NCBI RefSeq assembly: GCF_050920415.1
Contig: NZ_CP169309.1
Strand: one strand, 5' to 3'
From: Escherichia coli
GTDB taxonomy: Bacteria > Pseudomonadota > Gammaproteobacteria > Enterobacterales > Enterobacteriaceae
Length of the DNA: 64,000 nt
A program made the translations under genes and the position numbers. The notes under the pieces were generated by a model. It was not told the origin of the DNA and made no database searches. It saw nothing but the letters and a program-made list of their open reading frames with translations. The first letter of the stretch is position 1, and the number at the start of each line of letters is the position of its first letter. Shown here piece after piece: positions 9,261 through 27,023 of this stretch.

Positions 9261-10737
9261 TAACCTGAGCGACGAAGAGCAAATCGAGTTGCTCGAGCTA
9301 CTCGAAGAAGAAGAGAACTACCGGAACACACACCTGCTATATGAATTTACGCCATACAGCAAGCAGCGTGAGTTCATCGACGCCGGGCATGACTATCCAG
9401 AGCGATGTTTTATGGCTGGTAACCAGCTTGGTAAGTCATTTACTGGTGCTGCTGAAGTCGCGTTTCACCTTACCGGTCGTTATCCGGGCACAAAAGGCTA
9501 TCCTGCTGATGGTAAATATGGCGGTGAGTGGAAAGGTAAGCGTTTCTATGAGCCTGTTGTCTTCTGGATTGGTGGAGAGACAAACGAGACTGTAACCAAA
9601 ACGACTCAACGCATCCTGTGCGGTCGTATCGAAGAGAATGGTGAGCCAGGCTACGGTTCCATACCGAAAGAAGACATCATTAGCTGGAAGAAGTCTCCTT
9701 TCTTTCCGAACCTTGTTGATCATCTTCTGGTTAAGCATCACACGGCTGATGGCGTTGAAGATGGCATTTCAATCTGCTACTTCAAACCATACTCGCAAGG
9801 CCGTGCTCGCTGGCAGGGTGACACAATCCACGGCGTGTGGTTTGACGAAGAGCCACCATACAGCATTTATGGCGAAGGTCTTACCCGTACCAACAAATAC
9901 GGGCAATTCTCAATTCTGACGTTTACCCCGCTGATGGGGATGTCTGACGTTGTTACCAAGTTCCTGAAGAATCCCAGCAAGTCTCAGAAAGTGGTCAACA
10001 TGACCATCTATGACGCTGAGCACTACACCGACGAGCAGAAAGAGCAAATCATCGCATCCTATCCTGAGCATGAGAGAGAGGCGCGTGCTCGCGGTATTCC
10101 TACGATGGGTAGTGGTCGAATCTTCCAGATACCGGAAGAGACGATTAAGTGTCAGCCGTTCGAGTGTCCTGATCACTTCTACGTAATTGGCGGTATGGAT
10201 TTCGGATGGGATCACCCGCAGGCGCAGGTTCAGCTTTGGTGGGATAAGGACGCAGACATAATCTACCTTTCACGCGTTTGGAAGGCGAAAGAAAAGACAG
10301 CCGTTCAGGCGTGGGGAGCTGTTAAACCATGGGCGCATAAAGTGCCAACCGCATGGCCTCATGACGGAAACCAGCACGAGAAGGGCGGCGGTGAGCAGCT
10401 CAAAGGGCAGTATGCGGACGCTGGATTTATGATGTTGCAGGAGCATGCGACATGGCCTGATGGCGGTAACGCTGTTGAGCCTGGCATCACTGAATTGCGA
10501 GACATGATGCTCGACGGTCGCTTCAAAGTATTCAACACCTGTGAGCCATTCTTTGAGGAGTTCCGCCTCTATCACCGTGATGAAAACGGGAAAATCGTCA
10601 AGCTTAACGACGACGTGCTATCCGCCGTTCGCTATGCATACATGATGCGCCGCTTCGCAAAAATGATGCGCGACATCAAAAAGCCAAAAGAGAAAAAGAT
10701 ACCAGCCCCAATCAGGCCCATCGCACGGAGAACTTAA
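9238..10737 (+). CDS. gp2: Terminase large subunit (P22 gp2)
   Basis: 499 aa with a GTG start: (M)[36 protein letters not shown].... P22 gp2-like throughout. Confidence 0.95.
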
Positions 10738-12903
10738 ATGGCCGACGAAAACAGACTCAATTCCATTCTGTGTAAGTTTGACGCAGACTGGATGGCGAGC
10801 GATGAAGCCAGAACCGAGGCGACAAATGACCTGTATTTTAGCCGAGTGTCGCAATGGGATGACTGGCTATCAAACTACACCACCCTGCAATATCGCGGAC
10901 AATTCGATGTTGTTCGCCCGGTGGTCAGGAAGCTGGTCGCAGAGATGCGCCGGAACCCTATCGATGTTCTCTTCAGACCAAAAGACGGCGCTAATCCTGA
11001 TGCTGCCGATGTGCTGATGGGGATGTATCGTACTGATATGCGCCATAATACGGCAAAAATTGCCGTTAACGTTGGCGTTCGTGAGCAGATAGAGTCAGGC
11101 GTTGGTGCATGGCGTCTGGTCACGCAGTACGAAGACAACGATCCAACAAGCAACAATCAGGTAATCCGACGCCTGCCAATCCATGAAGCCTGCTCACACG
11201 TCATATGGGACGCCAACAGCAAGCAGATGGATAAGAGCGACGCTAAGCACTGCACGGTGATTAACGCCTTGTCGCGCAATGGCTGGAAAGAGTTCGCAGA
11301 GGATTACGGTATTGATCCGGACACGCTGCCATCTTTCCAGAATCCAAACGATACATGGCTGTTTCCGTGGGTATCGAATGATGTCGTCTACGTCGCTGAG
11401 TATTACGAGGTCGAAGAGAAGAAAGAGAAAGTCTTCATCTACCGCGACCCGCTGACAGGTGAGCCGGTCAGCTATTACCAGCAGGATATCAAAGACGTCA
11501 TCGACGACCTGGCTAATCGTGGATTCATTAAGGTAGCAGAGCGCAAGGTGAAGCGTCGGCGTGTGTATAAGTCGATCGTCACCTGCACGCAGATACTGAA
11601 AGACCGCGAGAAGATAGCCGGAGAGCATATTCCAATCGTTCCAGTATATGGCGAATGGTCATTCGCTGGTGACAAGGAGTGCTACGAAGGAGTGGTAAGG
11701 CTGACGAAAGACGGTCAACGCCTTCGTAACATGATCATGTCATTCAACGCCGATATTGTTGCTCGTTCACCGAAGAAGAAACCGACCTTCTTCCCTGAGC
11801 AAATCGAAGGCTACGAATACATGTACGGTGGAAATGATGACTATCCGTACTATCTGCAGAACAGGACCGATGAAAACGGCAACGACCTGCCGATTGGTCC
11901 AATCTCCTACATGGAAAACCCTGAAGTGCCGCAAGCCAACGCTTACATGCTTGAGGCTGCCACCAACGCAGTGAAAGAGGTGGCTAGTCTTGGTGTGGAT
12001 GCGCAGGCAGCAAACTCTCAGGTCGCTTTCGATACCGTCAATCAACTGAACATGCGGGCAGACCTTGAGACATACGTGTTTCAGGATAACCTTGCTACCG
12101 CAATGCGACGTGATGGCGAGATTTATGCTTCAATGGTCAATGATATTTATGACGTTCCTCGTCATGTAACGCTGACACTTGAAGATGGTAGCGAGAAAGA
12201 CGTTCAACTCTACGCGCAAGTTGTAGATTACCAGTCCGGTAATGTGGTCACACTCAACGACATTCGCGGTCGCTATGAGTGCTATACCGACGTTGGACCA
12301 TCCTTCCAGAGTATGAAGGAACAGAACCGCGCAGAGATTCAGGAGTTACTCACCAAGGTTCCGCAAGGTACTCCAGAGTTCCAGATGCTGATGTTGCAAT
12401 ACTTCACGCTGCTTGACGGTAAAGGCGTCGAGATGATGCGAGAGTACGCGAACAAGCAACTGGTGATGATGTGGCTGAAGAAACCAGAAACACCTGAAGA
12501 GATGGAGATGGTGCAACAGGCGCAACAGCAGCCGCAGCAGCCATCAGCAGAGCAAATTCAGGCGCAGGGTATCCTTCTGCAAGGTCAGGCTGAATTGATC
12601 AAGGCAGAGAACCAACAGGCGCAGATTCAGGTTGAAGCCGCCAAGGTTGAAGCCCAAAACCAACTCAACGCCGCGAAGATTGCAGAAATCTTCAACAATA
12701 TGGACCTCGACAAGCAGGCAGAACTGCGTGAGTACCTCAAGCTCGTAGGTCAATTCCAGCAACAGCGCAGCAAAGATGCTCGTGCTAACGCTGAGCTGCT
12801 TCTTAAAGATGCAGACCAGACTCATTCACAACGCATGGATTTCGCGAATCTTATGCGTCAAGTTCAAATCCCCTCCGGCGGAGTAGCCGAGACACCTCAA
12901 TAA
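10738..12903 (+). CDS. gp1: Portal protein (P22 gp1)
   Basis: 721 aa. Position after terminase. Long Gln-rich helical C-terminus ([18 protein letters not shown]...) like the P22 portal barrel. Confidence 0.95.
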
Positions 12904-12916
12904 GAGAGAGTTAACC

Positions 12917-13828
12917 ATGGACCAAACCACCGACATTCAGGCTTCTGAAGAATTAACCCTGCCCGGCAATCATGCAGCGGCATCTGCTGATGGCTTAGTT
13001 GTCGATAATGCCAACGACAGCGCAGGTCAGGAAGAAGGCTTTGAGATTGTCCTGAAAGACGATGAGAAACCAAAACAAGACCCGGCAACTAATGCTGAAT
13101 TTGCCCGTCGCCGCATCGAACGCAAACGCCAGCGTGAGCTTGAGCAGCAGATGGAAGCGGTTAAGCGTGGAGAGTTGCCGGAGCACCTGCGGGTGAACCC
13201 TGAGTTACCAAAACAACCAGACCCTAACGATTATCTTTCCGAAGATGCACTGGCTAAGTACGACTATGACCAGAGCCGCGCACTGGCTGCCTTCCAGCAG
13301 GCAAACAGTGAATGGCAGATCAAGGCCATGGACGCACGAAGCCAGGCTGTCGCCGAGCAGGGTCGCAAAACTCAGGAGTTCACCCAGCAATCAGCGCAAT
13401 ACGTCGAGGCAGCCCGTAAGCACTACGACGCAGCGGAAAAGCTCAATATCCCTGACTATCAGGAGAAAGAGGATGCATTCATGCAACTGGTGCCGCCAGC
13501 AGTCGGTGCCGACATCATGCGCCTCTTCCCGGAGAAATCCGCTGCTCTCATGTATCACCTTGGTGCTAATCCTGAGAAAACACGCCAGTTACTGGCGATG
13601 GACGGGCAATCCGCGCTGATTGAACTCACTCGACTGTCAGAACGTTTAACTCTCAAGCCTCGAGCCAAGTCTGTTTCAGAAGCCCCGTTACCTGATGAAC
13701 CCATTCAGGGACACGCTGTTGCTGCAAATATCTCTGCGATTGAAAAGCAGATGGAAGCGGCAGCAAACAAAGGTGATGTAGAGACGTACCGCAAGCTTAA
13801 GGCGCAACTGAATAAAGGAATTCGATAA
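12917..13828 (+). CDS. gp8: Scaffolding protein (P22 gp8)
   Basis: 303 aa, the same length as P22 gp8. Highly charged and helical. Lies between portal and coat. Confidence 0.9.
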
Positions 13829-15123
13829 TGGCATTAAATGAAGGTCAACTGGTCACATATGCTCTGGATGAAATCATCGAAACCGTCCAGAACCTGACGC
13901 CAATGGCGTCCAAAGTGACAAAATACACCCCTCCGGCAGAATCCATGCAACGTTCAAGCAACACCGTGTGGATGCCTGTTGAGCAGGAAGCGCCAACTCA
14001 GACAGGCTGGGATTTAACTGGCAACGCAACCGGGATTCTGGAACTCTCCGTGAAATGCAACATGGGCGATCCGGATAACGATTTCTTCGAGCTTCGTGCA
14101 GATGACCTGCGTGATGAGCGTTCTTACCGTCGCCGCATCCAGGCATCCGCCAAAAAACTGGCGAATAACATTGAGTCAGCAATTGCCAAACAGGCAACCG
14201 AAATGGGCTCACTTGTTGTTCACGATACCCGCGCAATTGGTCCATCTACTGGCCTGTCTGGCTGGGATTTTGTGTCTGATGCAGAGCGCCTGATGTTCTC
14301 CCGTGAGCTAAACCGCGATATGGGCATCAGTTACTTCCTGAACCCTGACGATTACCGCAAAGCAGGCCGCAACCTGGTAGATGGTGACATCTTTGGGCGC
14401 GTTCCTGAAGAAGCGTATCGTAACGGTACTATTCAGCGTCAGATTGCTGGCTTTGATGAAATTCTTCGCTCACCGAAACTTCCGGCAGTTACCAAGTCAA
14501 CCGCTACTGGTGTAACTGTTTCTGGTGCGCAGAAGTTTAAGCCGCAGGCATACACCCTTGATACCGATGGTAACAAAGAGAACGTCGACAACCGTGTTGC
14601 AACGGTGACCGTATCCTCCACCACCGGATTTAAGCGCGGCGACAAAATCAGCTTCACTGGTGTGAAATTCCTATCTCAGATGGCGAAGAACGTGCTGACT
14701 GATGATGCTACTTTCTCAATCACCCGAGTGATCGATAGTACTCACATCGAAATCACGCCGAAGCCGATTGCGCTGGATGACTCGTCACTGACAAAAGAAG
14801 AGAAGGCTTACGCTAACGTAAACACCTCTCTTGCTGATGCCACTCCGGTAAACGTTCTGAACGTGGCAACAACCACCGCTAACGTGTTCTGGGCTGATGA
14901 CTCAATCCGCCTGCTGTCTCAGCCGATTCCGGTAACCCATGAACTGTTTGCTGGCATGAAAACTTCTTCCTTCAGCATTCCAGGTATTGGTGTTAACGGC
15001 ATCTTCGCAACGCAGGGTGATATCAACACTCTGTCTGGCAAGTGCCGTATTGCTGTGTGGTATTCAGCATGTGCTGTACGACCAGAGGCAATTGGTGTTG
15101 GTCTGCCTAACCAGACTGCGTGA
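13828..15123 (+). CDS. gp5: Major coat protein (P22 gp5)
   Basis: 431 aa [30 protein letters not shown].... P22 gp5-like in size and position. Confidence 0.95.
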
Positions 15124-19331: not shown

Positions 19332-20738
19332 ATGGCTACTTGGCAAGGAACAAACGGCGGATTGTTGGCTGGTATCGGCGGCGTCAACTCAAACGCTCCG
19401 AGCGTAAATGACATCGGCAATACGCTTCAGCTTATCAGGCAGAACAATGATATTGAGCGTTCAGGCGCTAACAATGTTGGGCTGACTGCTTTGCAAGGCC
19501 TTTCAGGTATTGCGGGGGTGTTTCAGCAGGAAAAGCAGGCTCAGCGGCAGAAAGAATTTCAGCAGGCATACGCTAATGCTTATGCGTCTGGTGATCGCGG
19601 TGCTTTGCGTCAGTTGGCTACTCAATATCCAGACCAGATTGAATCCGTTCGTAAAGGCATGGGATTCATTGATGAAGACCAGCGTAATTCTATCGGCACC
19701 TTAGCGGCTGGCGCTCGCCTTGCGGCATCGTCTCCAGAAGCGATGCAATCATGGCTGCAAAACAACGCCAAGGAACTGACTCGCGTAGGTGTTGACCCTA
19801 ACAACGTTGCTCAGATGTATCAGCAGAATCCTTCAGGATTTGGTGAGTTTGTTGATCACCTTGGGATGGCTGCTCTTGGTCCGATTGATTACTTCAATGT
19901 TCAGGACAAGATGGCTGGTCGTGAAATTGACCGAGGCAGGCTGGCAGAGACAATCCGCAGCAATCAGGCTGGCGAGGCACTTCAGGCGAGAGGGCAAAAC
20001 CTTTCCTATCAGTCAGCAATGACTGGACACAATATCGCAGCGCAACGCTTGGCTCTGGATCAGCAAGAGTTCGGGTTTAAGATGCAGCAAGCGCAGGAAA
20101 AGGCTCAGCAGTTGATTAGCGAAGCACCTAAGCTGTCAGTAAACATGGAAAAAGGCATCGAGACGGCTGTAAACAATGCCACAGCATCATCAAACTCAGC
20201 CAATTCCATGAGTGCGCTTGCTCAACAGTTCAGAGCAGAAAAACCAACGACAGGTTTGTTCGGTAACGCACAGAACATGTTCGCAAAACTTACCGGAAGC
20301 GATACGACATTGCGTGATTTGCGCATTCGCCAAAATGCCCTTGTTAACAGTCAGGTTCTTAAATTCCTACCTCCCGGCCCAGCAACGGATAAAGACGTTG
20401 AGATCGTTCGACAGGGTGCGCCAACTGACATGGATAACCCTGAGACGGTCGCAAGATGGCTTGATGCAATGGCAAACCTTGAGCGACGAAACGCGCAGTT
20501 TAATGAGTTTAAAGCCGAGTGGATGAGCGCGAATGGCAACCCTGGACAATCGCGTAATGGCGGTCAGATATTGGGGTTGGATGTTAAAAAAGGTGAATCA
20601 TTGGGGAGTGCCGTTAAGCGGTATATGTCAATGAATACTGACGCAGCGCCAGCACAAGATTCGACACCTTCAGGAGAACCACGGAATCAGGTTGGATCAT
20701 ATACCTCAAAATCAGGCATTCAATTTACGGTGGAATGA
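19332..20738 (+). CDS. gp20: Ejection protein gp20
   Basis: 468 aa (P22 gp20 is about 471). Assigned by synteny. Confidence 0.85.
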   Translation: MATWQGTNGGLLAGIGGVNSNAPSVNDIGNTLQLIRQNNDIERSGANNVGLTALQGLSGIAGVFQQEKQAQRQKEFQQAYANAYASGDRGALRQLATQYPDQIESVRKGMGFIDEDQRNSIGTLAAGARLAASSPEAMQSWLQNNAKELTRVGVDPNNVAQMYQQNPSGFGEFVDHLGMAALGPIDYFNVQDKMAGREIDRGRLAETIRSNQAGEALQARGQNLSYQSAMTGHNIAAQRLALDQQEFGFKMQQAQEKAQQLISEAPKLSVNMEKGIETAVNNATASSNSANSMSALAQQFRAEKPTTGLFGNAQNMFAKLTGSDTTLRDLRIRQNALVNSQVLKFLPPGPATDKDVEIVRQGAPTDMDNPETVARWLDAMANLERRNAQFNEFKAEWMSANGNPGQSRNGGQILGLDVKKGESLGSAVKRYMSMNTDAAPAQDSTPSGEPRNQVGSYTSKSGIQFTVE

Positions 20739-22741
20739 TGAAAGTAACTGCAAACGGTAAGACATTTACCTTCCCTGATGGTACGAGCACGGAAGATATT
20801 GGCACCGCCATTGATGAGTATTTTGCTGGTCAGTCAGCACCAACACAACAAGGTGTTCAGCAATCGCCAGCAGACAACTCACTTGCATCAGGATATGCAC
20901 AGCTTGCCACTCAGCAGAAGGAAGGACTAGATCGCTCTGCTGAGCAAGGGGCTGTTTTAGGTGCTGCAATGCGCGATGCCGTTACCGGTGAAAGCCGAAT
21001 GACACCAGAAATGGAGAGACTGCAAAATGTTGGGTCTGCTCCAGAGCTTAATAGCTTAAGCACTGATGCGCTGCGTGCTGGATTGGGGCAGCTATTTGGT
21101 TCCGACGCTTCACAGGAGAAAATACTGCAAAGTATTGGCGGGAAAATCCGGAAGGATGAGAAGGGAAATTCCATAGTCACCCTTCCTTCAGGGGAATATG
21201 CACTTAACAAGCCTGGTTTGTCACCGCAGGATATAACGTCATTCTTGGCAAATGCTCTTGCATTCACTCCAGCAGGTAGAGCTGCGTCTGTTGTAGGTGC
21301 AACACTAAAATCAGGCGCTACTGATTTAGCTTTACAGGGTGCCACTAAGATCGCTGGCGGTGAGAATGTTAATCCAGTTCAAACTGCAATTTCTGCTGGT
21401 CTTGGTGGGGTACTGAAGGGTGTAGAAAACACCGCAAGCGCAGTGTCTCGTTCTGCTATGGGTAAGATTGCTCCTGAAAAACAAGCTCAGATTGACTTTG
21501 CCAAGCAGAACAACTTGCCACTGATGACAACAGATCTTGTGGAACCGGGAACAAATATTGGTAAGCAAGCACGAGCTATGGCTGAGCGAATCCCAATAGC
21601 CGGAACAGGTGGGATAAGAAATGCACAGCAAAAGGCCAGGGAAGATTTAGTTAGAACTTTTAGCGATAATGTTGGTGGAATATCTGACGCACAACTTTAC
21701 CAATCAGCTACTCGTGGTCAGCAGCAATTTATTCAGGCTGCTGGCAAGCGGTACGACAGGATCATCAGTTTGATGGGGGATACTCCTGTTGACATCACTG
21801 GAACAGTGAAAGCAATTGATGAGCAGATTTCCAAGTTAACTCGCCCAGGAGTATCGCAAGATCGCTCAGCTGTTTCTGTCCTTCAACAGTTTAGAAATGA
21901 CATCACCAGCGGTCCAAATAACCTGCAATTAGCTAGAGAAAACCGTACAAACTTACGTAAGCGCTTTATGGCAGCACCTGACGAGGTCGATAGAGATACG
22001 CTGGAGAAAGCTGCGCAGTCTGTTTATAACGCATACACAACAGACATGAAAAAAGCGGTTGGCGCAAAACTAGGTGCGAAGGAAGCGCAAAACATGTCGC
22101 GTGTTGATCGTTCTTGGGCAAAGTTCAACGACATGATGAGCAATACACGTGTCCAAAAAGCTATTCAGAGTGGTAAAACAACGCCAGAAGATGTCACTAA
22201 ACTAGTATTCAGCCAAAGCCCAGCGGAAAGGGCGCAACTTTATCGATTGCTTGATGATAGTGGGCGTCAAAATGCTAGAGCAGCACTTGTTCAGCGTGCA
22301 ATGGATAAGGCGACAAGCGATTCAGGAAAGCTTAGCGTTGAGAAGTTTATTAATGAAATGAAAAGGAATCGGAAGCAGGCTGAGACGTTCTTCAGAGGAG
22401 AGCATGGGAAACAGCTTGATGGGATAATGAAATATCTTGATTCCACTAGACAGGCAGCTACTGCTGCCGCAAGCCCACTAACAGGGCAAATGGTAGCTGG
22501 TCCAGCAGCGCTGATAACAGCTCTTGCGTCTGTTACAAATCCAATGTTTGCAAAAGTTGCGGCAGTTGGAGCTGGTATCGGTATGGCTGGCAGGGGCTAT
22601 GAGTCACGCGCGATGAGGAACGCATTACTAAAGTTAGCAAACACGCCAAAAGGAAGTACTGCTTATGATAGAGCGATCAGACGGGTATCTGAAACTCTTA
22701 CACCTCTAATTCAGGCTTCAAGTGAGAAAGCCCAGCAGTAA
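20735..22741 (+). CDS. gp16: Ejection protein gp16
   Basis: 668 aa. Last gene of the late operon by synteny. ATGA overlap with gp20. Confidence 0.85.
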   Translation: MMKVTANGKTFTFPDGTSTEDIGTAIDEYFAGQSAPTQQGVQQSPADNSLASGYAQLATQQKEGLDRSAEQGAVLGAAMRDAVTGESRMTPEMERLQNVGSAPELNSLSTDALRAGLGQLFGSDASQEKILQSIGGKIRKDEKGNSIVTLPSGEYALNKPGLSPQDITSFLANALAFTPAGRAASVVGATLKSGATDLALQGATKIAGGENVNPVQTAISAGLGGVLKGVENTASAVSRSAMGKIAPEKQAQIDFAKQNNLPLMTTDLVEPGTNIGKQARAMAERIPIAGTGGIRNAQQKAREDLVRTFSDNVGGISDAQLYQSATRGQQQFIQAAGKRYDRIISLMGDTPVDITGTVKAIDEQISKLTRPGVSQDRSAVSVLQQFRNDITSGPNNLQLARENRTNLRKRFMAAPDEVDRDTLEKAAQSVYNAYTTDMKKAVGAKLGAKEAQNMSRVDRSWAKFNDMMSNTRVQKAIQSGKTTPEDVTKLVFSQSPAERAQLYRLLDDSGRQNARAALVQRAMDKATSDSGKLSVEKFINEMKRNRKQAETFFRGEHGKQLDGIMKYLDSTRQAATAAASPLTGQMVAGPAALITALASVTNPMFAKVAAVGAGIGMAGRGYESRAMRNALLKLANTPKGSTAYDRAIRRVSETLTPLIQASSEKAQQ

Positions 22742-22749
22742 AAAGTTGG

Positions 22750-23070
22750 TTAGCGGTTGATGGTTGCTTTTTTCGGGTCATACCATCTCGGCCATTCTTT
22801 CAGGAATGGGAATGAGTCGGGAGCGTGGTTCTTTTTGTACGATTTAAGCAGCCTTAACCGCTCTATCGCACACTCATAAACCTCTTGTTGCCCTGTAGTC
22901 ATCTCGGTCCATGAAAGGTGATCCATTGATAAGACAACGTTTTCAGCTTCTTTTATGAGGGCGTTTTTATTTCTCACCGCAGCAGCATGGCTGACAGAGC
23001 AATCCTGCCATATTCTTAAAAGCCAAATAGCTAAGCAGATAAAAAAAATGGTAGATAGCGATATATACAC
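22750..23070 (-). CDS. Hypothetical single-pass membrane protein (106 aa) in the P22 sieA slot
   Basis: GTG at 23070 with GGAGG 5 nt upstream. N-terminal TM YISLSTIFFICLAIWLLRIW, then a soluble tail ending FLKEWPRWYDPKKATINR. The longer track ORF (to 23286) would overlap the opposite-strand gene and lacks an RBS. Confidence 0.45.
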   Translation of the reverse strand: MYISLSTIFFICLAIWLLRIWQDCSVSHAAAVRNKNALIKEAENVVLSMDHLSWTEMTTGQQEVYECAIERLRLLKSYKKNHAPDSFPFLKEWPRWYDPKKATINR

Positions 23071-23100
23071 ACCAACCTCCTTAGTTTTGAGCAGGATACC

Positions 23101-23466
23101 ATGAAAAAAGTTAACATTGGAAACGTACCAAAGATGCTCGTACCGCTCTTTGAGAGCGGTACAATTGTGTTTTGTAGAGACTTTCCAGAATGGCAACGCC
23201 TGCATCAAAAACTTGGCGTTGACGTGCATGACTCGGACGCCAACGGAGCGTCTCATACAATGAGTAGCGAGAATGGTGTTTTGCATGTGATAGGCGTGTT
23301 CAATGGCAAACTATCTACTATTGCCCATGAGTGCGCTCACATGGCATTCGATATCTGCTCAAGGGTAGGTGTTGATGTTGAACCAGGAAGAGCCAACGAG
23401 ACTTACTGCTACTTAATGAGCAGGCTTGTTGAGTTCTGCGAGCGACATATCAAAAAGCCGGAGTGA
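23101..23466 (+). CDS. Hypothetical 121-aa protein with a minimal zincin signature (HECAH ... E)
   Basis: AGGA upstream of the ATG. HECAH at aa 76-80 (nt 23326-23340). Glu100 lies 20 residues after the second His, which is gluzincin spacing. No named family recognised. Confidence 0.55.
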   Translation: MKKVNIGNVPKMLVPLFESGTIVFCRDFPEWQRLHQKLGVDVHDSDANGASHTMSSENGVLHVIGVFNGKLSTIAHECAHMAFDICSRVGVDVEPGRANETYCYLMSRLVEFCERHIKKPE

Positions 23467-23476
23467 CCCGGCTTGA
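23453..23476 (-). terminator. Hairpin terminator between convergent genes (T-run on the minus strand)
   Basis: AAGCCGG / loop / CCGGCTT. On the minus strand it is followed by TTTTGATAT, directly after the 59-aa gene. Confidence 0.5.
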
Positions 23477-23479
23477 TTA

Positions 23480-23659
23480 TTACTTTTTGCTGTCTGGAGT
23501 TCGCTTATCCAATACCCAGCCATGACCTGGCTTTGTTGTTGGTGGAAGCCTTTCGTTGTCCTTGACGGTGGCAAAATTGTCTTTCTTACCGCCGCGTGGG
23601 CCAACTTCTTGGTATATTCCGCCGTTTTTTCCTGTGTTTTCACCTGGTTTTTTCGCCAT
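23480..23659 (-). CDS. YjzC-like small protein, 59 aa (same size and position as P22 orf59a downstream of mnt, from memory)
   Basis: MAKKPGENTGKNGGIYQEVGPRGGKKDNFATVKDNERLPPTTKPGHGWVLDKRTPDSKK. GAGG lies 7 nt upstream of the ATG at 23659. The pattern resembles the Bacillus YjzC family. Confidence 0.55.
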   Translation of the reverse strand: MAKKPGENTGKNGGIYQEVGPRGGKKDNFATVKDNERLPPTTKPGHGWVLDKRTPDSKK

Positions 23660-23758
23660 GATATACCTCAACATACACCCGTTATTGGGCGATTAAATAT
23701 TGATCTCATTTTATAAGTAGTCAATATGGCCCAGGTAAATGCAAAAATTAACTCACCG

Positions 23759-24010
23759 TCAGGTGGTTTTTTTGTACAAATCCTTCAGCGTATCAAACAC
23801 CATCTTCTTAACAAGATCTGACTGCTCATCAGCGAGTCGTTCTGCATCGTCACGATATCCAGTCACAGGCGATGGTTTTGATAGAGCATCTTGGACGATT
23901 TGCAACAATTCTGAGTTCATTGATCTACCATTTGACTCTGCTCTGTATTTTAATTTTTCTCTTACTTCCAAAGGCATGCGGAAGTTAAAGTGCGGATCGT
24001 CTCTAGCCAT
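23759..24010 (-). CDS. mnt: Mnt repressor (ribbon-helix-helix)
   Basis: 83 aa MARDDPHFNFRMPLEVREKLKYRAESNGRSMNSELLQIVQDALSKPSPVTGYRDDAERLADEQSDLVKKMVFDTLKDLYKKTT. Nearly identical to the remembered P22 Mnt. Confidence 0.95.
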   Translation of the reverse strand: MARDDPHFNFRMPLEVREKLKYRAESNGRSMNSELLQIVQDALSKPSPVTGYRDDAERLADEQSDLVKKMVFDTLKDLYKKTT

Positions 24011-24033: not shown

Positions 24034-24297
24034 TTAACTTTCGTCTTTATTGTTGCCATACATGCATTTCAACTTCTCAACATCATGTTCAAGATCTATC
24101 AATCGTGATGCTATAGTTGCAAGGTCTAGTGCTTGAATGTGTTTATTTTTTTCGGTCCATGCTTCAAGTGCCGCGACCATCTCAGCATTTAATGAACGAG
24201 AATTAGCCTCAGCCAGTTCAATAAGACGTTCCTTTATCTCTACAGGAAGCCTCAGATTCACTTGAGGGTTTTTGTACTTACGATCAGACATCGGCAC
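24034..24297 (-). CDS. Second Mnt/Arc-family RHH protein (87 aa), first gene of the leftward immI operon
   Basis: N-terminal RHH pattern KNPQVNLRLPVEIKERLIELAEANSRSLNAEMVAALEAW plus a C-terminal helical tail, like the Mnt tetramerisation region. Confidence 0.7.
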   Translation of the reverse strand: MPMSDRKYKNPQVNLRLPVEIKERLIELAEANSRSLNAEMVAALEAWTEKNKHIQALDLATIASRLIDLEHDVEKLKCMYGNNKDES

Positions 24298-24537: not shown

Positions 24538-24716
24538 ATAAAGAAGATGGCTTTAAGTGCTCCTTCTGCTGAAAGCCTCAGCATGAATGTGCAATGTTGA
24601 TTCGCGCTAAAGCAGAGATATTTATCTGTAATGGTTGTGTATCTCTTTGCGTTGAAGCGATGGGGAAAGAGTTAAATTCTAGAAAAACAATGTTAGATGT
24701 GAGCATAAAACAGTGA
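24534..24716 (+). pseudogene. ClpX-type C4 zinc-ribbon ORF interrupted by an in-frame TGA at codon 13
   Basis: ATGA overlap with the Arc-like gene. MNKEDGFKCSFC*KPQHECAMLIRAKAEIFICNGCVSLCVEAMGKELNSRKTMLDVSIKQ*. The pattern CSFC-x-K...LI....ICxxCVxxC matches the ClpX N-terminal zinc-binding domain (CSFCGK...). TGA at 24570-24572 sits where Gly (GGA) is expected. Confidence 0.55.
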
Positions 24717-24767
24717 AGCCCCAACTGCGGTAACAGTCAGGGCTTCGGTATCAACAAAACTTACGAG
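24705..24767 (-). ncRNA. Candidate sar-like antisense RNA covering the ant ribosome-binding site
   Basis: Minus-strand TTGACT (24800-24795), 15 nt, TATCCA-like TATCAA (24779-24774). Minus-strand hairpin GAAGCCC-ca-ACTG-cggtaa-CAGT-ca-GGGCTTC (24715-24746) followed by ACTGTTTTA. The transcript would be antisense to GAGG-ATG of ant. Proposed by analogy to P22 sar. Confidence 0.3.
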
Positions 24768-25439
24768 GTATTATTGATATGTCAAGCTTAGCAAAGTCAA
24801 CTGTAAATTGCACTAATAGCATCATCATTTCTGACGTCAAGATTCATATGGATTCAGAGGGTCGTTACTCGCTTAATGACCTTCATGTAGCGTCTGGAAA
24901 GGAGGAAAAACATCAGCCAGCTTTCTTCATGCGTAGAAATGAAACTATTGAATTGATTAATGAAATTTTTAATTCTGCGGATATGCAGAATAAGAATCCC
25001 GTCATTTCTAAGAAAGGTAGATATGGTGGAACATACGTGTGCAAGGAGCTTGTTTACTCCTACGCCATGTGGATTAGCGCAGCATTTGCGCTGAAGGTTA
25101 TCCGCGCATATGACGCAATGGTTACTGCCACACAAGAGAGGAAGGCTATTGGCGGTAAAACTTCAGTAGCTGAACGCACGCCGCTACGCGATGCAGTAAA
25201 CATGCTGGTAGGAAAGAAAGGACTTCGCTATGACGATGCATACAATATGGTTCATCAGCGTTTTGGTATTGACAGCATTGATGAACTTTCAATTGAACAA
25301 ATCCCGCTGGCCGTAGAGTACATCCACAGGGTAGTGCTTGAAGGTGAGTAGACTGGCCCCCTGAATCTCCAGACAACCAGTATCACTTAAATAAGTGATA
25401 GTCTTAATACTAGTTTTTAGACTAGTCATTGGAGAACAG

Positions 25440-25805
25440 ATGATTGATGTCTTAGGGCCGGAGAAACGCAGACGGCGTACCACACAGGAAAAGATCGCAA
25501 TTGTTCAGCAGAGCTTTGAACCGGGGATGACGGTCTCCCTCGTTGCCCGGCAACATGGTGTAGCAGCCAGCCAGTTATTTCTCTGGCGTAAGCAATACCA
25601 GGAAGGAAGTCTTACTGCTGTCGCCGCCGGAGAACAGGTTGTTCCTGCCTCTGAACTTGCTGCCGCCATGAAGCAGATTAAAGAACTCCAGCGCCTGCTC
25701 GGCAAGAAAACGATGGAAAATGAACTCCTCAAAGAAGCCGTTGAATATGGACGGGCAAAAAAGTGGATAGCGCACGCGCCCTTATTGCCCGGGGATGGGG
25801 AGTAA
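25440..25805 (+). CDS. insC: IS2 OrfA (InsC)
   Basis: 121 aa [56 protein letters not shown].... Confidence 0.95.
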
Positions 25806-26668
25806 GCTTAGTCAGCCGTTGTCTCCGGGTGTCGCGTGCGCAGTTGCACGTCATTCTCAGACGAACCGATGACTGGATGGATGGCCGCCGCAGTCGTCAC
25901 ACTGATGATACGGATGTGCTTCTCCGTATACACCATGTTATCGGAGAGCTGCCCACGTATGGTTATCGTCGGGTATGGGCGCTGCTTCGCAGACAGGCAG
26001 AACTTGATGGTATGCCTGCGATCAATGCCAAACGTGTTTACCGGATCATGCGCCAGAATGCGCTGTTGCTTGAGCGAAAACCTGCTGTACCGCCATCGAA
26101 ACGGGCACATACAGGCAGAGTGGCCGTGAAAGAAAGCAATCAGCGATGGTGCTCTGACGGGTTCGAGTTCTGCTGTGATAACGGAGAGAGACTGCGTGTC
26201 ACGTTCGCGCTGGACTGCTGTGATCGTGAGGCACTGCACTGGGCGGTGACTACTGGCGGCTTCAACAGTGAAACAGTACAGGACGTCATGCTGGGAGCGG
26301 TGGAACGCCGCTTCGGCGACGATCTTCCGTCGTCTCCAGTGGAGTGGCTGACGGATAATGGTTCATGCTACCGGGCTAATGAAACACGCCAGTTCGCCCG
26401 GATGTTGGGACTTGAACCGAAGAACACGGCGGTGCGGAGTCCGGAGAGTAACGGAATAGCAGAGAGCTTCGTGAAAACGATAAAGCGTGACTACATCAGT
26501 ATCATGCCCAAACCAGACGGGTTAACGGCAGCAAAGAACCTTGCAGAGGCGTTCGAGCATTATAACGAATGGCATCCGCATAGTGCGCTGGGTTATCGCT
26601 CGCCACGGGAATATCTGCGGCAGCGGGCTTGTAATGGGTTAAGTGATAACAGATGTCTGGAAATATAG
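25763..26668 (+). CDS. insD: IS2 OrfB (InsD); transposase made as an OrfAB fusion by -1 frameshifting
   Basis: 301-aa DDE ORF. Slippery A6G at 25757-25763 lies in the OrfA/OrfB overlap. Confidence 0.95.
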
Positions 26669-27023
26669 GGGCAAATCCAGTGAGTTCATTGGCAAACAAG
26701 AGAAGAAAACCAACGAGCTTTCTGCAAAAGAAGCAAACAGCCTTGTATGGTTATGGGATTATGCCAACCGCTCACAGGCATTATTCCGCGAATTGTATCC
26801 GGCATTAAAACAAATTCAATCGAACTATTCCGGCAGATGTCATGACTGCGGTTATGAGTTCTCCCGTATTATCGATATAGCGAGAGACGTTTTAATTAAT
26901 CACACACGAGATGTTGATATCAATGAGCCAGACGGACCAACGAATCTTTCCGCATGGATGAGACTTAAGAATAAAGAATTACCTCCTTCAGTACATAATT
27001 ACTGACAGATAACCAACGCAACG

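Follow-up and report, generated by a model that had tools for sequence, protein, structure and literature searches.

The interval between ejection gene 16 and the mnt repressor gene in a P22-like prophage of Escherichia coli, located within a 64,000 nt stretch of contig NZ_CP169309.1 (hereafter, the window), raises the question of what two small divergent genes are doing in the position where phage P22 carries the superinfection exclusion gene sieA. The original prediction was that both genes together replace sieA and form a module for exclusion or defence, and the open reading frames themselves are as it described them: a 106 aa frame on the minus strand and a 121 aa frame on the plus strand containing an HECAH motif followed by E100, with start codons 30 nt apart. 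The reading moderately favoured here is that the region forms the left-hand end of the 'ant moron', a known mosaic segment, in a P22-like prophage and holds two independently assorting accessory genes, which are arranged back to back around a conserved junction of ~34 bp. This is no new kind of biology, and instead refines what is known of a mosaic hot spot.

The left border of the variable region is the homologue of P22 gene 16 (20735..22741, plus strand), which encodes a 668 aa protein whose N-terminus could be aligned with that of P22 gp16 by eye, an assignment with which synteny agrees; the same 668 aa protein is ORF13 of phage N7, and a Pfam search with the window's copy returned no match. 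The right-hand landmark is mnt (23759..24010, minus strand), the product of which matches the Pfam Arc and Repressor_Mnt families, and the region around this gene is 98% identical to P22 by megablast. Between them lie a leftward gene for a single-pass membrane protein of 106 aa, termed p106 (22750..23070, minus strand); a rightward gene for a stand-alone zincin of 121 aa (23101..23466, plus strand), named hkcC in phage HK620; and orf59a, or HkcD (23480..23659, minus strand), which encodes a YjzC-like protein of 59 aa and is convergent with the zincin. The three proteins match phrog_10450 (E 3e-52), phrog_1365 (2e-39) and phrog_3202 (1e-31) respectively, in all of which the function field reads 'unknown'. 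None of them matched a PADLOC-DB 2.0 model at E <= 1, and searches with Pfam and NCBIfam gave nothing usable.

Parts of this arrangement have been described previously. Ten types of ant moron were distinguished in sixteen genomes (Villafane et al. 2008, PMC2629481), a work in which hkcC and 59a already appear among the P22 genes without known function. HK620 (AF335538) has an identical layout, comprising a small leftward gene without assigned function, hkcB, the divergent hkcC, a bidirectional terminator and the orf59a homologue HkcD, although its hkcB is a different 109 aa cassette unrelated to p106; its hkcC, labelled 'unknown', is 99% identical to the copy in the window. Similarly, P22 holds the same 121 aa frame, with one residue different, at 13861-14226 between sieA and orf59a. 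The curated P22 record (BK000583) leaves this frame unannotated, placing only a promoter and a terminator there, such that the reference annotation of a well-studied phage omits a conserved gene that is under selection and carries a zinc-protease signature. The suggestion that both genes replace sieA is consequently wrong for the zincin, which replaces nothing, being present beside sieA in P22 and also in HK620. The hkcC layout and the mosaicism of the moron are already known; neither the identity of hkcC as a zincin nor a fixed-start cassette site with a dozen envelope alternatives was found to be stated in the AF335538 annotation or in PMC2629481.

The replacement is sharply delimited. Homology to P22 begins, by megablast, at window position 23067, equivalent to P22 13827, at the sieA start codon, and it is the sieA coding sequence alone that has been replaced, the swap beginning at the shared GTG. 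The divergent junction (23068..23101) consists of the leftward GTG and its GGAGG, the 30 nt spacer and the first base of the rightward ATG. Hence p106, which runs from GTG 23070 to a stop codon at 22750-22752, inherits from sieA its start codon, its ribosome-binding site (GGAGG at 23080-23076, 5 nt 5' of the start) and the sequence annotated in P22 as the sieA promoter. The counterpart of this putative promoter (P22 13861-13891) was located at 23101..23131 on the minus strand by transferring the BK000583 coordinates via the 98% identical alignment. A simple sigma-70 scan found no match at 23101..23131, and its function as a promoter therefore rests on the P22 annotation and the literature. Since the GTG, the ribosome-binding site and the P22-annotated promoter sequence are all retained, p106 would most likely be made in the lysogen, judging solely by its position.

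A survey of 84 loci in which the zincin is 99-100% identical revealed that the leftward slot is occupied by at least 12 types of gene, the products of which show no BLASTP similarity to one another. These are SieA type A, a 161 aa lipoprotein, a 129 aa protein with a signal peptide, p106, and proteins of 75, 62, 68, 149, 99, 140, 109 and 109 aa; a TM segment, a signal peptide or a lipobox is present in approximately 11 of these 12 products. The same GTG serves as the start codon for 11 of the 12 types, the lipoprotein type starting elsewhere. The cassette p106, which is the left neighbour at seven of the 84 zincin loci, is thus one alternative cargo of the sieA slot. Among these very diverse envelope cassettes, SieA is the sole protein with a shown function, and Pfam searches with ten of the alternative cassette proteins, SieA included, returned no match. 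A junction stretch of just 34-50 bp is kept in many more E. coli genomes, with other genes on both sides. The sieA slot is therefore a fixed-start cassette site for at least 12 unrelated genes, nearly all encoding membrane or secreted proteins, which makes it a source for a short list of exclusion or defence candidates that could be screened with the assays already set up for SieA.

The p106 frame is not a chance one, as its homologues, at 65-77% identity, retain 25 invariant columns. A longer frame of 178 aa on the minus strand, starting at ATG 23286, was considered as the true gene and rejected, because homologues begin at the GTG or ATG of the 106 aa form and the added stretch runs antisense to the zincin frame, the one under selection. 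The protein contains one hydrophobic segment, at residues 3-21 (Kyte-Doolittle 2.05), and its AF2 model (pLDDT 88) consists of a helix spanning residues 5-48, representing the TM segment and a stalk, a second helix at 59-77 and a C-terminal hairpin. It would thus be a bitopic inner-membrane protein with a two-residue N-terminus, one TM helix and a helical domain of ~85 residues, this soluble domain being predicted to be cytoplasmic because N-terminal positive charge is absent. That p106 is expressed from the prophage and located in the membrane is probable.

Relatives of p106 are always found beside or downstream of lysogenic repressor genes. In phage N7 and in two further loci they lie downstream of mnt, either directly (mnt-p106, L118) or after two intervening genes (mnt-x-x-p106, L117), and gp49 of mEp043, identified as a homologue by hhalign (98.2%, E 3.7e-14), is encoded 15 bp past cI, ahead of PL/N. 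This corresponds in position to the lambda rex slot; like rexAB, the mEp043 gene is downstream of the repressor gene, and its product is a single small bitopic protein that would not be expected to be related in sequence to RexA or RexB.

Comparison with P22 SieA, of which types A, B and C have been described (Leavitt et al. 2024, PMC10883804), shows that p106 occupies the same place, directly against the 3' end of gene 16, and that both are small inner-membrane proteins without a signal peptide. The location typical of the SieA family, between genes 16 and 9 with the PsieA sequence upstream, is shared by p106, for which expression is judged from position. By contrast, SieA has three to four TM helices according to PMC10883804 (three by hydrophobicity here) and p106 has one, and the cytoplasmic SieA motif FxRYPxEAxxFNK described in that study is absent from p106 on inspection of its sequence. 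BLASTP aligned p106 with P22 SieA at no E value up to 100, and tblastn detected no cross-match between the two in 98 loci. On sequence grounds p106 is an analogue of SieA by position and not a member of its family.

The zincin, translated from ATG 23101, has HECAH at residues 76-80 and E100 20 residues past H80. Homologues extend down to ~25% identity, forming a family of 517 clusters at E <= 1e-3, comprised of stand-alone phage proteins of ~120 aa. Among full-length relatives HExxH is kept in 123 of 124, and in an alignment of 109 sequences G49, H76, E77, H80 and E100 are invariant, bearing out the expectation that the HExxH..E residues should be constant. Between diverged copies synonymous sites are saturated (pS 0.75-0.94) while pN is 0.24-0.42, indicating purifying selection. 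The AF2 model (pLDDT 89.3) has the topology b-b-a-b-b-a(HExxH)-a(E), in which HExxH falls within a helix spanning residues 71-88 and E100 opens another at 100-116. When this model was used to search BFVD, 26 matches were obtained at E < 1e-3, the named ones being 'SprT-like' (E 2.5e-5 and 4.5e-4) and 'Metalloprotease', with 'IrrE' appearing more weakly. Setting the protein below all peptidase families in size was accordingly too strong, as many small phage proteins share a matching fold and a few carry the designation SprT-like or metalloprotease. Among solved peptidases no match was significant: the best PDB match by Foldseek was SPRTN (6mdx), at E 0.2 and a probability of 0.47. Likewise Pfam returned no match for the window's protein, to SprT-like (PF10263) or any other family, and three of the 109 relatives weakly match SprT-like (best E 1e-4). 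This family of small phage proteins, more than 500 clusters strong, has no Pfam model.

Stand-alone HExxH proteins of the SprT-like/Wss1/SPRTN and ImmA/IrrE (M78) groups are, like hkcC, small and common in phages. The third ligand in the SprT/Wss1 family is His, whereas the invariant third candidate ligand of hkcC is Glu, and unlike ImmA/IrrE, hkcC has no conserved adjacent repressor partner of the ImmR HTH type. Gluzincins (thermolysin-type, clan MA(E)) have HExxH on one helix and the third ligand, Glu, on the next; in the hkcC model E100, which would be this ligand, opens the helix after that of HExxH. The gene product would be a minimal, soluble zinc metallopeptidase-like protein of the HExxH..E type, and the odds that it is an active metallopeptidase are somewhat better than even.

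In every locus checked, the zincin belongs to the late operon and is co-directional with the late genes. In P22-like phages its place is bounded by gene 16 and mnt; epsilon34, L, ST64T and the Citrobacter and Atlantibacter loci have it between their lysis genes and dec or terminase; and prophages with long-tail genes carry it upstream of those for the tape measure or tail tube. A scan for sigma-70-like promoters upstream of the zincin on the plus strand found none. Late transcripts from Plate are thought to traverse the ant moron to the tailspike gene (PMC2629481). Oriented with the late operon, hkcC would most likely be translated from such transcripts reading through the region, and the proposal that it is expressed mainly late, a deduction purely from position, stands at an even chance. 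The protein would then act on one specific protein target during lytic growth.

How these genes are functionally connected can be judged from their distribution. It is very improbable that the membrane protein and the zincin constitute one exclusion or defence module, such as a membrane sensor and protease effector under shared divergent control, even though they are head to head with starts 30 nt apart, and the same pair recurs in E. coli K71-77, in the 0H strain series and in five IMG/VR contigs. The co-occurrence that such a pairing implies is not seen: the head-to-head junction is present in seven of 5,426 complete E. coli genomes, compared to 56 with p106 and 127 with the zincin. Furthermore, at least 11 other unrelated genes adjoin the zincin on its left, sieA of P22 among them, and p106 homologues in phages N7 and HZ41, in L117 and L118 and in mEp043 have no zincin within their locus. 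SieA also functions without the zincin; a sieA fragment that includes 85 bp of upstream DNA suffices to confer exclusion (PMC10883804), and therefore the slot can function without hkcC. The single-module reading is thus largely refuted by distribution, and the two genes very probably do not form a functional pair. The most constant neighbour of hkcC is the convergent YjzC-like orf59a, not p106. The product of orf59a itself scores below the gathering cut-off of Pfam YjzC (PF14168; 19.1 bits against 25, E 0.0017); its close relatives are named 'YjzC family protein' in source databases and its distant matches carry PF14168. A rather doubtful proposal, accordingly, is that the functional unit consists of the zincin and orf59a, the small protein being made in the lysogen from Pmnt or a promoter of its own and serving as substrate, inhibitor or partner of the late protease, in a switch between lysogeny and lysis or a pair resembling toxin and antidote. 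A YjzC-like gene follows the zincin convergently, with stop codons 5-16 nt apart, in 70 of 80 near-identical loci, and also in seven of nine diverged loci of the hkcC subfamily (46-63% identity), these being in P22-like prophages and prophages with long-tail genes (Rosenbergiella, Klebsiella, Xenorhabdus, Proteus, a Pasteurellaceae bacterium and Morganella). Yet physical linkage alone could hold the two together, as the final zincin codons contain the YjzC transcript's terminator: the hairpin at 23455..23474 overlaps the codons for KKPE and the stop, and a terminator scan rated it strong in the leftward direction, for the mnt-orf59a transcript, and weak in the other. Its counterparts are tORF59A of HK620 and the 'mnt terminator' of P22, and the hairpin is retained with different stem sequences in four other loci (L004, L009, L010 and L110). 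Moreover, YjzC-like genes occur without the zincin in S. bongori, compost-metagenome and JGI loci, and the zincin without YjzC in 10 of the 80 loci, in K71-77 and throughout the Orf129 subfamily. Full-text literature searches on orf59a, hkcC and SprT-like anti-defence proteases of phages found no functional study of these genes. As for the 121 aa frame not encoding a functional protease at all, the promoter and terminator that are the only features annotated over it in P22, and the lack of a significant match to a solved peptidase, would fit either a non-coding artefact of those signals or a catalytically dead scaffold. The strongly purifying selection, the invariance of HExxH..E across 109 diverse members, the confident zincin-like topology of the model, and the occurrence of homologues in contexts lacking a sieA promoter or mnt terminator all stand against this; the non-coding version is already refuted, and the alternative as a whole is very improbable.

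With the two genes treated as independent, the role of p106 has to be considered separately. By analogy with SieA, its likeliest task would be to exclude superinfecting phages or to act against them at the membrane in some other way, a suggestion that falls slightly short of an even chance. The original prediction was therefore right to place this gene in the sieA slot, as position, GTG and ribosome-binding site attest; its assignment to exclusion or defence survives as a reasonable candidate function, against which stands that p106 resembles no characterised exclusion or defence protein. It is possible, albeit unlikely, that p106 is a membrane protein of the prophage with a non-exclusion role in lysogenic conversion or host physiology, or as an anchored regulator of prophage development. 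The diversity of envelope proteins in the slot, with function shown for SieA only, is compatible with this, as is the predicted cytoplasmic location of the soluble domain, unlike many exclusion proteins that act in the periplasm. The C-terminal 200 aa of the gene 16 product are of one type that is strictly linked to the p106 cassette (seven of seven loci), which could reflect hitch-hiking or a self-directed function. Against a non-exclusion role, the p106 family is found in three classic exclusion-gene positions, namely the sieA slot and the places following mnt and cI, a recurrence which anti-phage cargo fits best. The same breadth, across three different lysogenic control regions and including the isolated phages N7 and HZ41, makes p106 the first candidate for screening. 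A more far-reaching and improbable scheme would have p106 found a new class of single-pass inner-membrane exclusion or defence proteins, encoded under lysogenic repressor operons in P22-like and lambda-like prophages and acting at the cytoplasmic face on the ejection-protein conduit, with hkcC as a late minimal gluzincin removing a lysogen-made protein, Orf59a or a host factor, at the lytic switch. Action on this conduit would explain the strict linkage to one gp16 C-terminal type.

Two smaller features of the locus deserve mention. A terminator-like hairpin on the plus strand, at 23140-23162, falls inside the zincin frame and could limit expression of the gene. It was rejected as a conserved RNA element, as diverged homologues keep it only in part, and for this reason its presence probably stems for the most part from the conserved codons for VPLFESG. 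The ant gene of the window's prophage is interrupted by an IS element, and the prophage may therefore be decaying.

Both open reading frames (ORFs) of the head-to-head pair were confirmed as originally described. The minus strand gene, p106, runs from a GTG at 23070 to a stop codon at 22750-22752, is preceded by GGAGG 5 nt upstream and encodes a 106 aa protein with a single hydrophobic helix at residues 3-21, while the plus strand gene (ATG 23101 to 23466), referred to here by its HK620 name of hkcC, encodes a 121 aa zincin with HECAH at residues 76-80 and E100 positioned 20 residues after H80; the two start codons are separated by 30 nt. A 178 aa minus strand ORF at 22750-23286, an upstream extension of p106 antisense to the 5' half of hkcC, is almost certainly a mis-call, and this over-extended form is present in public databases (P0035 and P0037, each 178 aa). 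The neighbourhood is a P22-like late region, with a gene 16 homologue (20735-22741) on one side and, on the other, orf59a, encoding a YjzC-like 59 aa protein (23480-23659, minus strand), and mnt (23759-24010, minus strand). Beyond mnt lie a second Arc-family gene (87 aa; 24034-24297, minus strand), found between mnt and arc where the P22 annotation has no gene; arc itself; the sar antisense RNA (24712-24777, minus strand; Rfam RF00262, 62.8 bits; gathering score 43), directly upstream of the ant start; ant; and a tailspike gene with a P22 head-binding domain. As ant (24779-27005) is split into a KilA-N part (24779-25351) and a P22_AR_C part (26643-27005) by an IS3-family element, with transposase ORFs at 25395-25805 (HTH_Tnp_1) and 25763-26668 (rve), this prophage probably lacks a functional immI region.

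The proposal that the pair represents a novel two-gene module in place of sieA is not supported, as P22 itself carries hkcC. Window positions 23067-23800 are 98% identical to P22 13827-14560 by megablast, and the P22 DNA contains an intact 121 aa ORF, under purifying selection, with the single residue change H44Q (13861-14226 in BK000583/NC_002371; 2535-2900 in the P22 comparison locus). The curated BK000583 record annotates within 13827-14560 only the sieA promoter (13861-13891), the mnt terminator (14212-14234), orf59a and mnt; hkcC is thus missing from the P22 reference annotation. The homology between the two phages breaks at the start codon, with the window GTG at 23070-23068 corresponding to the annotated sieA start at P22 13830, and the ribosome-binding site is common to both, as is the annotated sieA promoter sequence, a feature that sits within the first 31 nt of hkcC. 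Because P22 also has the 121 aa ORF and the homology break falls at the start codon, only the sieA coding sequence is replaced in the window. In HK620, hkcC is annotated as 'unknown' and flanked by the leftward hkcB, a 'bidirectional terminator tORF59A' and a possible HkcD, the orf59a homologue. The record for phage 34 (KR296688) names hkcC a 'GNAT family acetyltransferase', for which this analysis found no support. The entire gene 16 to gene 9 interval has been described by Villafane et al. as a highly variable 'ant moron', and hkcC and 59a are counted there among the P22 genes without a known function (PMC2629481).

The variability of the leftward position was surveyed in 80 IMG/VR contigs whose zincin is 99-100% identical, along with the window, P22, E. 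coli K71-77 and HK620, scoring the leftward gene beginning at the shared GTG. At least 12 types were found: a 161 aa lipoprotein with its own start a few nt from the shared GTG (18 loci), SieA type A (14), a 129 aa signal peptide protein (12), a 109 aa protein with a transmembrane (TM) segment and coiled coil (nine, including two small-indel variants), a 75 aa two-TM protein (eight), p106 (seven), a second 109 aa protein unrelated to the first (six), a 62 aa protein (four), 68 aa and 149 aa proteins (two each), and 99 aa and 140 aa proteins (one each). BLASTP detected no similarity between any two of the 12, and approximately 11 of them have a TM segment, signal peptide or lipobox. The predicted lipoprotein (MKKSLLIIPLLLAGC...; for example at 3481-3966 on the minus strand of L025, a comparison locus, and in 17 similar IMG/VR loci) fills the slot more often than any other type among the contigs sampled; it matches no Pfam family and is a further candidate exclusion gene.

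Nor do p106 and hkcC show the co-occurrence expected of a module: among 5426 complete E. coli genomes, a full-length zincin was present in 127 and p106 in 56, while a query spanning their junction was covered in only seven. Phages N7 and HZ41 carry a 100% identical p106 closing a leftward operon of mnt-like, orf115, orf170 and p106 genes with no zincin, and diverged homologues (67-70% identity) occur as mnt-x-x-p106 in one locus (L117) and mnt-p106 in another (L118), neither of which contains a zincin anywhere. The junction alone, 34-50 bp comprising the GTG, ribosome-binding site, spacer and first hkcC codons (23068-23117), is kept in many further E. coli genomes with other genes in both flanking slots; in examples, the place of hkcC is taken by a P63C-domain protein or a 139 aa protein (L115 and L116). 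Hence the rightward slot is exchangeable like the leftward one, and the junction resembles a recombination boundary separating exchangeable modules. Taken with the many leftward types and the occurrence of p106 without a zincin, this shows the head-to-head layout to be a generic scaffold with two slots filled independently. Two separate, modestly interesting leads remain. Neither amounts to a new kind of system; both fall within known kinds, namely the morons that populate the ant-moron hot spot and the small zincins of phages.

The first lead is p106, a new candidate in the cassette slot where SieA is also found. Only 14 clusters (90% identity) make up its family, but constraint is clear: 25 columns are invariant among members sharing 65-77% identity. 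The AF2 model (pLDDT 88) comprises a long helix at residues 5-48, forming the TM segment and a stalk, a second helix at 59-77 and a C-terminal hairpin; with two uncharged residues at the N-terminus and R19 the first charge after the TM segment, the positive-inside rule predicts that the soluble domain should be cytoplasmic. Homology to SieA was ruled out, since p106 does not align with P22 SieA, has one TM helix rather than three or four, and lacks the motif FxRYPxEAxxFNK. The p106 profile does match gp49, a 98 aa protein of the lambdoid phage mEp043 (hhalign 98.2%, E value 3.7e-14; 2432-2728 in L114, the mEp043 locus) that shares the architecture of p106, its TM helix being accompanied by the same soluble domain with the CAIERL motif; it is encoded 15 bp downstream of cI, ahead of PL/N, by position the slot of rexAB in lambda. 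The family's four arrangements, in the sieA slot, two mnt operons and a cI operon, are all tied to lysogenic control regions, and the placements under mnt and cI lend independent support to its candidacy. This placement, the precedent of SieA and the predominance of envelope proteins among the other cassettes make a prophage-expressed, membrane-located exclusion or defence factor the best, if still tentative, reading of p106, its main rival being other roles in lysogenic conversion. The gene is also strictly linked to one type of gp16 C-terminus (7/7 loci), which is suggestive because mutations that escape SieA lie in the C-termini of both gp16 and gp20 (PMC10883804), although adjacency alone could account for the linkage.

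The second lead, hkcC, is a long-known 'unknown' gene of P22 and HK620; its zinc-peptidase signature is invariant, and the phage family to which it belongs is large and unstudied. In close homologues (43-99% identity), H76, E77, C78 and H80 are invariant, and E100 is present in all except one frameshifted sequence. An exhaustive profile search recovered 517 clusters (50% identity) at E ≤ 1e-3, nearly all stand-alone proteins of 100-140 aa; HExxH is found in 123 of 124 full-length relatives, and G49, H76, E77, H80 and E100 are the only invariant residues in an alignment of 109 sequences. Diverged copies have pS of 0.75-0.94 and pN of 0.24-0.42, which marks hkcC as a selected protein and rules out the ORF being a by-product of the overlapping promoter and terminator. 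The AF2 model (pLDDT 89.3) contains two strands, a helix, two strands and the HExxH helix, followed by a helix starting with E100, a zincin-like order of elements. Foldseek found no significant match among solved structures in the PDB (the best being SPRTN, E value 0.2); in BFVD there were 26 matches at E < 1e-3, all small phage proteins, most uncharacterised and a few named SprT-like or metalloprotease. The window zincin matches no Pfam or NCBIfam model, and three of the 109 relatives weakly match SprT-like. The protein is best placed in an uncharacterised phage family of minimal gluzincin-like proteins.

In every readable context the zincin points the same way as the late genes. P22-like phages have it between gene 16 and mnt; the Orf129 subfamily (38-40% identity) sits with lysis genes on one side and dec or terminase on the other in epsilon34, L, ST64T and Citrobacter/Atlantibacter loci, with a relative in mEp044 following the lysozyme gene; and in long-tail-gene prophages of Rosenbergiella, Klebsiella, Xenorhabdus, Arsenophonus and Moraxella it is just upstream of tape measure or tail tube genes, sometimes just 30 bp from the preceding late gene. 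Given that no sigma-70-like promoter was found ahead of hkcC on the plus strand in the window, that a variable cassette lies upstream and that Plate transcripts are held to read through the ant moron as far as the tailspike gene (PMC2629481), hkcC is inferred to be expressed mainly late, at roughly even odds. A terminator-like hairpin with a perfect 10 bp stem and T-rich tail (23140-23162, plus strand) lies within zincin codons 14-21 and could damp non-antiterminated rightward transcription; as it is partly retained in two diverged homologues and lost from others, conservation of the VPLFESG codons may account for most of it.

Rather than p106, the gene that constantly accompanies members of the hkcC subfamily is the convergent YjzC-like one, present in 70 of the 80 near-identical and seven of the nine diverged loci, across both P22-like and long-tail-gene prophages. 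This constancy would fit a functional link in which the protease acts on, or is restrained by, the small protein. However, the terminator hairpin of the YjzC transcript (AAAAAGCCGG..CCGGCTT), kept in diverged loci with different stem sequences, overlaps the last zincin codons, so part of the linkage has a mechanical cause; YjzC-like genes are also found without zincins, and zincins without YjzC, leaving such a link as a less likely rival reading. One long-tail-gene prophage carrying the pair, in Klebsiella oxytoca (L004), also has a SNIPE/T5orf172-domain gene and a divergent Arc-family gene pair just after the tape measure gene (10241-12369), which looks like an immI-like insertion in the tail operon.
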